From positions 1 to 27,864 of the IMG/VR virus record IMGVR_UViG_3300011412_000019: a DNA stretch of 27,864 nucleotides, one strand, 5' to 3'. Below are positions 5,798-27,864 of this stretch, in pieces. The translations under genes and the position numbers were made by a program. Within the stretch, counting starts at the first letter, position 1. Each line of letters begins with the position of its first letter. Origin of the DNA: a virus. Its lineage: Duplodnaviria > Caudoviricetes. The notes beneath the pieces were generated by a model that was not told the origin of the DNA, ran no database searches, and saw only the letters and a program-made list of their open reading frames with translations.

Positions 5798-5998
5798 TCA
5801 CTCCTTCGCTTCTCTTAGTTCGTTTAGTTCTCTTGTGAGCTGTCCGACTTTACGAATAGCAATGTTCTTTTTGTTTTTTACGTCCTTAATTCTCTCTGCT
5901 ACAGTCTCGGGTTCGTCAATATACTCCGAACCAGCAAAACCAGCATCTGACATTGCTACATTCCAACGATGTTCTAGATCGGTTCTTTCGCGGTCCAT
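5798..5998 (-). CDS. Hypothetical protein with C-terminal coiled-coil (66 aa)
   Basis: Tightly packed and co-oriented with neighbours; plausible composition. Confidence 0.7.
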   Translation of the reverse strand: MDRERTDLEHRWNVAMSDAGFAGSEYIDEPETVAERIKDVKNKKNIAIRKVGQLTRELNELREAKE

Positions 5999-6014
5999 TA
6001 CTACCTGATCTGCT

Positions 6015-6215
6015 TTACAGCACGCTCTCCGAGAATTCGGGCCCCGGCAAGAACGCCTCCGGCAGCGAGTCCAATCGCAAGAGCATAAACGATGAACATT
6101 TGTTTCCTCCTTCCATAGGAAAATAATTGGTGGGTACGCTTATCACCTCCAACTCAGCGTCAGTCATGATTCCTAGAAGCCGCACAGCTAGGGGAGGTTC
6201 TGACCTTGTGAGCAT
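6015..6215 (-). CDS. Hypothetical protein (66 aa)
   Basis: Fills the gap downstream of the structured element; weak RBS, start uncertain. Confidence 0.45.
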   Translation of the reverse strand: MLTRSEPPLAVRLLGIMTDAELEVISVPTNYFPMEGGNKCSSFMLLRLDSLPEAFLPGPEFSESVL

Positions 6216-6224
6216 AGACTAGCT

Positions 6225-6426
6225 ACTCAACCCACCGCTGGAATACCCTGGACCGGCAAGCTATGATTCACCCATCGGCGAGATCATAAACATGTCCGGC
6301 GCTCTCCCCGTACAGGGCGGCCGATTTGTCGCAGGAGAGGTGTACGCCCCCCGAGCATTTGTCGGCGCTTTTTTTTTGCCTCCGCCCATATGGCTTTGGC
6401 CAGGGTAGTCCAGCGCTAGGTTGAAT
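6225..6426 (-). ncRNA. Putative ~200-nt structured RNA with a 27-bp closing stem
   Basis: 6400-6426 pairs with 6225-6251 at 25 of 27 positions, including 2 G-U pairs on the minus strand; several inner hairpins and an A9 tract. Confidence 0.6.
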
Positions 6427-6550
6427 GGTGGGTTGGTGCCCCGATATTTGATAGGAAGGGCATAACGCCTCGTTTTATTTTCACCAGCCCACCCTATAGG
6501 GGACCCAAGGCCACAAGTTATGTAGCCGGATATTGTCGATCCCCTATAAG
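6427..6550 (-). ncRNA. Two further stem-loop domains adjoining the 200-nt element
   Basis: 6482-6493 pairs with 6427-6438 (11/12). 6538-6550 pairs with 6493-6505 (13 bp with G-U) and encloses GGCUACA/UGUGGCC. Confidence 0.5.
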
Positions 6551-6560
6551 CTGAGTTGAT

Positions 6561-6618
6561 AAAAAAAGAATACCATGAGATCAAAGGTTGGTTAAATCTC
6601 AATTAGAGTTAGTATTCT
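6561..6618 (-). ncRNA. Putative 58-nt small RNA C
   Basis: Begins right after the TATAAT of copy C: AGAAUACUA/UGGUAUUCU closing stem, inner UGAGAU/AUCUCA stem, U-tract; no ORF or RBS. Confidence 0.6.
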
Positions 6619-6643
6619 ATTATATAGTATGTTTTTTCTGCGG
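6617..6643 (-). promoter_or_regulatory. Repeated promoter motif, copy C (CCGCAGAAAAAACATACTATATAATAG)
   Basis: Matches the 7-copy consensus. Confidence 0.8.
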
Positions 6644-6647
6644 GACG

Positions 6648-6741
6648 AAAAAAAGAATACATTCCTCTGAAATCAAGTTTCTCTTCCCTACTGTGATCGG
6701 CAGCGGGCTATCGAGTGTCAGGCTTCATTGGTTATGTATTC
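6648..6741 (-). ncRNA. Putative 94-nt small RNA D
   Basis: Begins right after the TATAAT of copy D: GAAUACAU/AUGUAUUC closing stem, inner CCCGCUG/CAGUAGGG hairpin, U7; no RBS. Confidence 0.6.
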
Positions 6742-6766
6742 ATTATACAACATGTTATTTCTGCGA
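6740..6766 (-). promoter_or_regulatory. Repeated promoter motif, copy D (TCGCAGAAATAACATGTTGTATAATGA)
   Basis: Matches the 7-copy consensus. Confidence 0.8.
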
Positions 6767-6769
6767 GAC

Positions 6770-6804
6770 AAAAAGCTAAAGACCGGTTAGGGTCTCTAGC
6801 TCTT
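6770..6804 (-). terminator. Intrinsic terminator after ORF 6809-6955
   Basis: AGAGCUAGAGACC-loop-GGUCUUUAGCUUUUU. Confidence 0.7.
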
Positions 6805-6808
6805 AAAA

Positions 6809-6955
6809 CTACTTGGTGGCGGCAGCAACGGTCTTTCGGTTGCGGAAGACGTTCAGGACGATGGTGGTCGCGCGGGTCATAATGCGGTCAACGATGACAG
6901 CAAGGAACCACGCGAACATCAGGGTCAGAATGCCTTTCAAAACCTGGTTGAACAT
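6809..6955 (-). CDS. Small membrane protein, 48 aa (MFNQVLKGILTLMFAWFLAVIVDRIM...)
   Basis: AAGGAGG RBS before ATG 6955 (the track start at 6994 lies inside the promoter); one TM helix. Confidence 0.8.
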   Translation of the reverse strand: MFNQVLKGILTLMFAWFLAVIVDRIMTRATTIVLNVFRNRKTVAAATK

Positions 6956-6980
6956 TGAGTTCCTCCTTATAGTTAAGGGT

Positions 6981-7007
6981 TCATTATATGCCATGTTTTT
7001 TCTGCGA
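6981..7007 (-). promoter_or_regulatory. Repeated promoter motif, copy E (TCGCAGAAAAAACATGGCATATAATGA)
   Basis: Matches the consensus; followed by RBS, ORF and terminator. Confidence 0.85.
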
Positions 7008-7040
7008 AAAAGAGAAAGACCATGTTTAGATCTCTCTCTT
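7007..7040 (-). terminator. Intrinsic terminator after ORF 7046-7138
   Basis: AAGAGAGAGAUC-loop-GGUCUUUCUCUUUUU, abutting the next promoter. Confidence 0.7.
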
Positions 7041-7045
7041 GTGAA

Positions 7046-7138
7046 CTACTTTACGGTGAGTTCCTTGTAGCAGGTGTAGACGAATGTCTGGATGTACGTT
7101 GTGCTGTAAATCCAAGCATAGTGCAACGGCCTGATCAT
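7046..7138 (-). CDS. Microprotein, 30 aa (MIRPLHYAWIYSTTYIQTFVYTCYKELTVK)
   Basis: Hand translation; AAGGAG RBS; bracketed by promoter F and a terminator. Confidence 0.7.
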   Translation of the reverse strand: MIRPLHYAWIYSTTYIQTFVYTCYKELTVK

Positions 7139-7159
7139 GAAAATCTCCTTAATAGGGGT

Positions 7160-7186
7160 TCATTATATACCGTGTTTTTCCTGCGA
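7160..7186 (-). promoter_or_regulatory. Repeated promoter motif, copy F (TCGCAGGAAAAACACGGTATATAATGA)
   Basis: Matches the consensus. Confidence 0.85.
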
Positions 7187-7215
7187 GGGTAAGGCTAATA
7201 TCTAATCCTTTTTCA

Positions 7216-7232
7216 AAAATATCCCCCCGGGG
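7216..7232. repeat. 17-bp repeat AAAATATCCCCCCGGGG, copy 1
   Basis: Identical to 27837-27853; both copies are intergenic. Confidence 0.8.
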
Positions 7233-7247
7233 AATTTTTAGTTTGAC

Positions 7248-24276: not shown

Positions 24277-25212
24277 CTAAGCAGCTGCGGTAGCGATTTT
24301 TGCAGCTATAGCAAGCTTGGCTCTGCTCGAAGCTTCGTCCGTAGCTTTATCAATTGTTTGACTTCCAGCTTTTCCTAGAGCTTTAAGCACGAATCTCTTA
24401 GCAGCACTCTTTTCTCCATACTCAAGTCTCCTAACGCTTTGTTCAAGCTGCAATCGCCTTGAATATGATTGCAACTCTTGATCAGAAAGCGCTTTGAGAC
24501 CACTCTTCTTTCCCACCTGCCCGAGCGTGCGCGCGCGTACAGCGTCAGGACTTCCTGTACGGAAATGTCCACCTTTAACTTTGAGTTTCTTTCCTTTGTC
24601 AGCTACTGTAACGCTGCTCGATCTCTTCTGACGGACACCCCATTTCATACCTTTTCTTCCGAAATGAGTAAGAATATTATCTACAATATTATCACTCATA
24701 GCCACTTCCATTTCCCAATTAGGAGTTTTCAAAGGAAATTCGAGGCCTTCATAATCGCCAAACCAAACCCCAATACGATCGAAGTTCACATAGGTAATTC
24801 CAGGATAATCTCGATTATCGGGTTTAGCTGGAGTATCAGGATAACCAAGCGTGATATGTGGTTTCCATTCAGGAAACTGTTCAACCGAATCATATGCGGT
24901 ACGAATATTATGATCTTTAAGAAGGTACGATCTAAAATCGTTTATACCTTCGAATCCGCTCCATTTAGATTTCGAGAAGAACAACACATCAGCTTTGTCA
25001 TCACCTAATACATCACGCCTATCGACCTCTAAACCAAAAGATGTAAGCGATCGATCTGCGGCATGCTTCACAAAACCCACGATTCCAGCAAAGTTTTTGA
25101 CTTTACTTACTTCCCCAAGAAATAAGAGAGTCAGATGAGGAACTTTTTCACTAGAAATCTTGTGAATATAATCATCCTTTGCTGGAATCGCTACAATAAC
25201 CAGATTAGGCAT
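24277..25212 (-). CDS. 2H-phosphoesterase (2'-5' RNA ligase/Acb1-like fold) fused to an 'LTHFGRKGMKWGVR' basic domain (311 aa)
   Basis: Two HxT motifs (PHLTL, PHITL) about 93 aa apart; C-terminal domain begins with the HxGxKGMKWGVR motif. Confidence 0.8.
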   Translation of the reverse strand: MPNLVIVAIPAKDDYIHKISSEKVPHLTLLFLGEVSKVKNFAGIVGFVKHAADRSLTSFGLEVDRRDVLGDDKADVLFFSKSKWSGFEGINDFRSYLLKDHNIRTAYDSVEQFPEWKPHITLGYPDTPAKPDNRDYPGITYVNFDRIGVWFGDYEGLEFPLKTPNWEMEVAMSDNIVDNILTHFGRKGMKWGVRQKRSSSVTVADKGKKLKVKGGHFRTGSPDAVRARTLGQVGKKSGLKALSDQELQSYSRRLQLEQSVRRLEYGEKSAAKRFVLKALGKAGSQTIDKATDEASSRAKLAIAAKIATAAA

Positions 25213-27756: not shown

Positions 27757-27836
27757 GCGACCTCCTCTCATTAGTTATAGAGTTCGAGCTCCTTTCCCTA
27801 CACTTTTAACCCCGGAAAAAGTCGAATTGTTTGTGG

Positions 27837-27853
27837 AAAATATCCCCCCGGGG
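27837..27853. repeat. 17-bp repeat AAAATATCCCCCCGGGG, copy 2
   Basis: Identical to 7216-7232; upstream of the virion operon. Confidence 0.8.
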
Positions 27854-27864
27854 CTTTTTTTGTA

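Follow-up and report, generated by a model that had tools for sequence, protein, structure and literature searches.

Long helices of variable sequence are known to clamp the units of multi-unit transcripts, as at the processing stems of rRNA operons and the RNase III sites of T7 early RNA. In the SAM-I, lysine and c-di-GMP-II aptamers, a hinged arm folds back to form a pseudoknot at a multi-way junction. Integron attC sites carry boxes of the consensus RYYYAAC and GTTRRRY at their ends. For T4 RNAC and similar small stable phage RNAs, a function has been missing for decades. T4 RNAC, also called species 1 RNA, is described in parts of two published accounts as a small stable phage RNA of unknown function (PMC9697503; PMC3014915). 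The phi29 pRNA, according to part of a further account, has a long terminal helix, a junction and two complementary loops whose sequence differs between members (PMC4201828). The 6S and Ms1 RNAs are given a size of about 160-300 nt in a portion of the relevant report (PMC9130861).

The window analysed here, meaning the whole stretch of 27,864 bases, is a linear virus record, from a soil phage, that holds ~47% of the genome. Its annotated genes all lie on the minus strand and include, by PHROG and Pfam annotation, terminase, portal, capsid-protease and tail genes and two DUF6353 genes; the large terminase is of the ordinary type, phrog_9. The window proteins match those of Gordonia cluster DJ, Arthrobacter, Streptomyces and Rhodococcus ReqiPepy6 phages at <60% identity, and the ReqiPepy6 record itself compares several of its genes to Lactococcus phage 1706. 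No tRNA was found in the window. A 311-aa gene adjoining the terminase (24277-25212) has a 2H/LigT-like phosphoesterase domain (PF13563, below the cut-off) and DUF7211, and resembles Acb1-type anti-CBASS enzymes. Two places (7201-7242 and 27822-27863) hold an imperfect palindrome, centred on a C/G run and flanked by A/T; the same palindrome lies 3' of the phrog_5818 gene in contigs L002, L005 and L007 and is possibly a packaging or replication signal.

The element of interest is located beyond the tail genes, in the early region, where a promoter-like motif is repeated. It belongs to a pseudoknotted phage RNA family that is real and uncatalogued, with unusually clear covariation and spread across phage lineages. 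Read along the minus strand, the array opens with the promoter and a leader hairpin with its U-tract; cassette A, the spacer, the closing-helix RNA, a tail and a 32-aa ORF come next, with the following features.

6599-6643, minus: copy of the promoter-like repeat (family D1, 6 copies), TATAAT at 6624-6619; likely drives the array
6561-6618, minus: leader hairpin and U7 tract, terminator-like (predicted fold)
6482-6560, minus: slot-1 cassette A, a 79-nt hairpin (-40.1 kcal/mol) with arms like those of the closing-helix RNA and without the kissing core
6427-6493, minus: spacer between the slots, its end (6438-6427) a potential pairing partner of the 3' arm in the slot-1 cassette
6400-6426, minus: 5' arm of closing helix P1, 25/27 pairs, pair probability 1.0 alone and in a longer transcript
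6368-6399, minus: P1a hairpin and A9G linker J1/2, a lineage-specific insert; P1a pairing weakly predicted
6319-6367, minus: hinged arm, with P2 (6367-6362/6324-6319), P3 (6352-6347/6340-6335) and kissing loop L3 (6346-6341)
6361-6357 and 6330-6325, minus: ACAAA-type internal loop of the hinged arm
6306-6318, minus: linker G, hairpin P4 (6317-6306) and loop L4 (6314-6309)
6252-6305, minus: purine linker J4/5 (consensus AAMG) and variable arm P5 (6300-6252)
6225-6251, minus: 3' arm of P1, pairing with 6400-6426
6001-6099, minus: first downstream ORF, 32 aa with GGAGG ahead; the end of the non-coding unit, also following the array of relative L185

The D1 motif at 6599-6643 is a putative promoter and likely active; part of the report on the cluster DJ phage Vardy describes a 50-bp intergenic motif with TATAAT (PMC9671010). 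A 113-aa frame with a TTG start crosses the element (6602-6261) without a PHROG or Pfam match, and it was rejected as a conserved gene when its 5' half proved to be replaced in L185. A homologue search with the 187-aa protein encoded downstream of the RNA led to no named host.

A preliminary description of this DNA, made from the letters of the window, had proposed that the ends of the segment form a long helix, and this holds. The arms at 6426-6400 and 6251-6225 are paired at 25 of 27 positions, two of them as G-U on the minus strand (6425/6226 and 6418/6233), with mismatches G.G at 6416/6235 and C.U at 6408/6243. The minus strand folds to -98.1 kcal/mol (z -5.62, equalled by 0 of 200 shuffles), and the plus strand to -81 (z -3.37). 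The closing helix is the top long-range helix of the entire minus strand, scoring 53 against 40 for the next, and when the surrounding 3 kb was shuffled 60 times, the best helix averaged 31.5, with a maximum of 45.

The interior proposals fared unevenly. A hairpin reported at 6262-6288 is present (6287-6263) as part of the variable arm P5, and the duplicated CGACAAAU is not only there, it is the most conserved part of the family and became the key to recognising it. An A9 tract does occur at 6377-6369, but it is a local trait found in only 2 of 30 copies. The two remaining helices gave way to other pairings: GGCAA/UUGCC has a pair probability of 0.03 and CUCUCCU/GGGAGAG one of 0.01, and the fold kept among homologues places the bases of the former in P1a and P5 and those of the latter in P3 and P4. 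That description contained neither a 6-bp loop-loop pseudoknot (6346-6341/6314-6309) nor the surrounding cassette array.

Inside the closing helix, a conserved core of ~85 nt is predicted to form a four-way junction. From the 5' arm of P1, the chain passes through a linker with a terminal AG into the 6-bp P2 and an internal loop, then into P3 with loop L3, a single G, P4, AAMG and P5, and closes with the return strand of P1. The internal loop of the hinged arm has CAA on one strand and AYAAA on the other; the GACA of the arm is invariant (30/30 copies), and the arm interior measures 33-38 nt in 29 of 30. P2 is paired in 96.9% of cases, with double changes in 4 of its 6 pairs. In place of the A9G linker of the window, other copies have a short AU-rich J1/2 that likewise ends in AG (A in 27/30 and G in 29/30 at the last two positions). 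In some copies J1/2 could pair with the hinge, an idea discarded because the window copy does not allow it. The linker G before P4 is retained in 29/30 copies, and P4 itself varies across the family from 3 to 5 bp with a 6-7-nt L4. In L185 the sequence of P5 has been replaced with its pairing retained. The closing helix has at least 20 bp in 17 of 21 copies and 10-14 bp in the other four, and is short or ill-defined in several copies from non-DJ phages. Across the 30 copies loops and stems vary freely, and only the hinge and junction bases are fixed.

Selection on the fold can be read from the pattern of these changes. When the fold was imposed on seven full-length copies, 92.7% of cells paired and 27 of 47 pairs were doubly changed, a level reached by 0 of 500 shuffles in a test that ignores the relatedness of the copies; slid controls fell to 35-47% paired. 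The RNA-level structure suggested earlier is further backed by the wobble pairs within the closing helices, with 27 G-U against 2 A-C pairs in 18 copies (three near-duplicates dropped), a ratio somewhat inflated since the helices were detected with a score that favours G-U. The earlier concern that the arms might be conserved only as a DNA inverted repeat is answered by the compensatory changes found in them. We consider it very probable that the RNA fold is genuine and under selection at the RNA level.

The loops covary as well. In the window copy, L3 and L4 are complementary at 6 of 6 positions. With 10 distinct loops, 58 of 60 pairs are Watson-Crick, against 39.0±3.2 when shuffled; in nine held-out copies, retrieved with a pattern and a model that leave L3 and L4 free, 50 of 56 are, against 35.4±2.5, and 0 of 5000 shuffles do as well. 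Both tests sought the best partner by the same procedure whether the data were real or shuffled. Of the 20 copies that can be parsed among the first 21, 16 have a complete 6/6 Watson-Crick kiss, L262 being omitted for its extra arm and 5-nt loop; the weakest held-out kiss is that of G045, with 4/6. Complementarity holds through 20 distinct L4 sequences in the 30 copies, and each of four contigs carries two copies with differing kissing sequences. The arm presumably bends at the ACAAA loop, which would let L3 meet L4 within one molecule.

Homologues were collected by neighbour-gene searches, two motif scans and a covariance model, R1, built from 16 copies. This yielded 30 copies of 114-230 nt on 26 phage contigs, with identical re-assemblies counted once; as several copies are closely related, independent events number fewer than 30. 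Members score 19-78 bits with R1. A chance match selected by pattern obtains 28 bits, and lower scorers (L185C, L262 and G047) are therefore accepted on their helices and loops, while a weak match in L153/G017 (14 bits) was dropped. A pattern for the arm only was too loose (121 loci, none similar), and a second pattern gave 35 loci that were mostly chance, the real ones being chosen by fold. A relaxed pattern, scanned over 43 of 64 parts, gave 120 loci, 10 of which score with R1, one of them known before.

Most copies are found in 1706/cluster-DJ-like siphoviruses, and seven in other phage types (G046, G048, G044, G041, G047, G049 and G001). T4-like genes occur in G046 and G048 (gp32, RegA, clamp loader; major capsid, scaffold, protease), Sak4-like annealases in G047 and G049, and a DNA polymerase and dNMP kinase in G001; G044 is a complete phage of 82.8 kb and G041 a 91-kb piece, estimated 26% complete. 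The scanned copy-bearing stretches range from 31 to 58% GC. No phage gene is common to all the contigs, and no neighbour is fixed: copies follow phrog_4282 genes (three), lie just ahead of a ribosome-binding site, form arrays, precede a tRNA or sit between terminase and portal genes. T-loop-like elements that ARAGORN does not call adjoin copies at L144:9110-9150, L285:2660-2700, L135:2790-2840 and L148:7710-7750, and in L002 the stretch downstream of the RNA (5968-7180) has a secreted-type ORF rich in Pro and Asp, and after it one that is sortase-like by eye.

Model R1 found the RNA in 0 of 9 cultured actinophage genomes and in two of 39 further records, one of them weakly, and in a blastn comparison with 50,697 records of cultured phages, the region from the window and three further copies gave short chance matches only. 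For a bacterial counterpart, a pattern scan of 185,579 genomes gave two matches, both antisense inside long ORFs, a weak scan in that the pattern fits only 10 of 21 copies; R1 found none in 100 further sampled bacterial genomes from one phylum (44 candidates per genome scored; Actinomycetota outside the model search). Rfam, searched with E-value thresholds in the window and 18 homologue loci (8 + 10), gave nothing relevant, including no ribozyme or riboswitch. A literature search, mostly without subscription papers, found no description of the motif. In four supplementary files of a large phage RNA survey, neither the motif strings nor the contig numbers appear, and the motif may stand among the unnamed candidates of that survey (PMC10690425, available to us in part).

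Cassettes of the array around the window copy occupy different slots in close relatives. In L185, a very close relative, the counterpart of the window RNA occupies slot 1 (92% identical), and slot 2 holds a different cassette, a divergent family member, giving tandem copies; the spacer between the slots is 98.8% identical there (over 6493-6413). L141 has nearly identical closing arms around a shorter interior and a similar leader (76% over 6642-6555), and L185 has a different leader in the same place. In L228 and L135 a family member abuts a second, different helix-clamped RNA, and clamp helices like P1 are common to other cassette types; cassette A of the window (6482-6560), for one, gave no match to R1. 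Together, the slot swaps and the adjoining clamped units indicate that phages exchange clamped RNA units, and the cassette array thus shows structured RNAs swapped between phages as modules, probably by recombination at shared arm sequences. The array would be made by read-through at, or a cut at, the leader U7 tract.

Several further structured elements were noted in these regions. A second helix-clamped multi-arm RNA family, with complementary loops differing by copy, is seen at L199:3916-4071, L200:7004-7157, L228:1151-1330 and L135:4160-4312. Long-helix cassettes of other types occur in the early region at L190:2906-3036, L005:6207-6321, L157:3033-3253 and L148:7371-7480, and the 3' arm of the L005 cassette, too, finds another complement further downstream. 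Units of 50-110 nt composed of promoter, hairpin and U-tract without an ORF are found in the window (6741-6650, 6618-6561 and 4870-4812), in L007 (5920-6005 and 6400-6470) and in the L135 and L276 leaders; they are possibly tiny RNAs, and their 5' stem follows the promoter TAAT directly, nearer than the usual -10 to +1 spacing allows.

The copies are oriented like the genes at their site, G048 included, although head genes adjoining that copy point in the opposite direction; by a crude and noisy count, the strand of the copy is that of most neighbouring ORF length in 25 of 30, the five failures including the window, although its annotated genes are all minus. Nine of 30 copies start directly after a U-tract, where transcription may stop. 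Four soil or sediment RNA runs, X1-X4 (shares 0.04-0.05), cover 6812-6971 only and have no bearing either way on expression of the element. This coverage falls on a 61-aa orphan ORF (6809-6994), covered by contigs of the four runs at 95-100% identity and to a depth of up to 142, and it implies that close phage relatives may be active there, or DNA carry-over.

We tentatively read the segment as one copy of a likely non-coding phage RNA family that would be excised, protected by its clamp and used in trans as a shape decoy for a conserved host protein, a reading to which we give somewhat less than an even chance. The RNA would be transcribed within a longer early transcript from the promoter at 6643 and cut out by a double-strand or end-trimming RNase, with the closing helix then protecting it. 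P1, free in sequence, would thus serve as both a processing and a protecting clamp. That RNase III cuts stems of the P1 type is established, and the RNase III-type release of a stable RNA that the preliminary description put forward is plausible as a candidate process. An intramolecular U-turn at the ACAAA hinge would complete the shape, and the free RNA may then bind its host protein, with an RNA-sensing defence protein or an RNA-processing enzyme as the likeliest target class. Action in trans is suggested by the lack of a fixed neighbour gene, and recognition of shape over sequence by the free variation of loops and stems around fixed hinge and junction bases. Because the RNA is common to DJ-like, T4-like and other phages, yet absent from 9/9 cultured actinophages, a host-facing and dispensable role seems indicated; a range that reaches from DJ-like siphoviruses to carriers of T4-like genes suggests that the host target is conserved. 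A bolder reading, in which the RNA is an RNA-only counter-defence module, traded horizontally, that neutralises a widespread immune component (an RNA-sensing protein or a nucleotide signal), is rather unlikely. If it were true, the shuffled helix-clamped RNA array of 1706/DJ-like phages would be the RNA counterpart of an anti-defence gene island.

Other functions were weighed against the trans decoy. A self-cleaving ribozyme of an undescribed class, processing phage early or tRNA transcripts, would suit the small pseudoknotted core with its near-invariant unpaired A, C and G, the carriage by unrelated phages, the copy before a tRNA and the tandem copies in L185. However, P1 of 20 bp or more would keep the cleavage products joined in most copies, the fixed bases may be explained as hinge and docking contacts, and no Rfam ribozyme matched, all of which leave such an activity improbable. 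We judge similarly, and marginally lower, a free aptamer sequestering a small molecule, for instance a nucleotide that serves as an immune signal. Its conserved junction purines, position-independence and lack of an expression platform would fit, and the hinged arm with junction pseudoknot recalls the SAM-I, lysine and c-di-GMP-II aptamers; against this, no riboswitch family matched, the conserved junction bases are few (J1/2 of the window being A9G), and a sponge requires high abundance. A role in cis, where the RNA would stabilise or tune the adjacent phage mRNA by blocking exonucleases or serving as a translational leader, is about as improbable as the ribozyme. A ribosome-binding site abuts P1 in L148, L135b and L276b, and three copies begin at the stop codon of phrog_4282 genes, but placement is mixed (5', 3' and in arrays), the next start in the window is >100 nt off, slots are swapped within a gene-free array, and a 25-bp P1 leaves no switch. 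The well-constrained fold, the natural loop-swapped variants and the ~85-nt core make folding, self-cleavage, and ligand and protein binding directly testable.

The three remaining explanations concern larger assemblies, host polymerase and DNA. Pairing of the loops between molecules, giving a ring or cage like that of phi29 pRNA, is distinctly improbable, even though the layout resembles pRNA in its long terminal helix, long bulged arm, short hairpin and complementary loops (compared with part of PMC4201828) and one copy is flanked by terminase and portal genes. The RNA is missing from cultured relatives, and the window phage has an ordinary large terminase; the tightly fixed arm length fits an intramolecular U-turn and is compatible with a ring too. 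The analogy to 6S/Ms1-type decoys of host RNA polymerase in the preliminary description drew on the size, the long terminal helix and the open A-rich region; this copy does have ~200 nt, such a helix and an open purine strand, and the likely hosts of DJ-like phages are Actinobacteria, which use Ms1. The analogy is not supported, as there is no Rfam match (0 at E<=1 in the window and none relevant in the 18 homologue loci) and the conserved part is a pseudoknot, not a bubbled rod; we now regard it as highly improbable. The same very low standing applies to a DNA-level element without RNA function, an attC-like recombination site or the remnant of a mobile unit. The window copy does begin with RYYYAAC and end with GTTRRRY, cassettes do change slots in close relatives, and G-T pairs stabilise single-stranded DNA too. 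Both attC boxes, however, are present in only 1 of 21 copies, a covarying pseudoknot is kept across lineages, and no integrase or reverse transcriptase was found in the 41 window proteins (47% of the genome) or in the complete relative G007, of which 47 proteins were scanned, so membership among integron attC sites was rejected. A retron msr-msd was likewise set aside, given the variable P5, very short in some copies, the conserved G not adjoining P1 and the same lack of reverse transcriptase.

Compared with the known systems, the family shares with 6S/Ms1 RNAs the size of the window copy and the joining of 5' and 3' ends in a long helix. Those RNAs are rods with a central bubble between two long helices, whereas the family has a pseudoknotted four-way junction, extends down to 114 nt and is phage-borne; covariance models and fold both place it outside 6S/Ms1. 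With phi29 pRNA it shares two complementary loops on junction arms. The pRNA is an essential motor part that kisses between molecules, in contrast to a patchy, four-armed family in terminase phages, and membership was rejected on the lack of an Rfam pRNA match, the phrog_9 terminase and the absence from 9/9 cultured relatives. The array resembles the processing stems of rRNA operons and T7 in having a long variable clamp for each unit, and its slots are also used by other RNA types; it differs in that P1 is only 10-14 bp in 4 of 21 copies and short or ill-defined in several from non-DJ phages.

T4 RNAC and RNAD are not members, since the best R1 score in 5.5 kb was 11.6 bits (E 0.012, filters off) against 19-78 bits for members; the family has no T-loop in its core, and a tRNA lies beside one copy only. 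RNAC further differs in its T-arm-like hairpin, its tRNA operon and its lack of a GACAA/ACAAA hinge and of a long P1 clamp. Judged on its predicted fold, T4 RNAC (NC_000866.4 70908-71046; L460:1909-2047) is nevertheless the closest architectural analogue: its long arm contains internal loops, and 6 nt at the tip of that arm are complementary to the 6-nt loop in the hairpin that follows.
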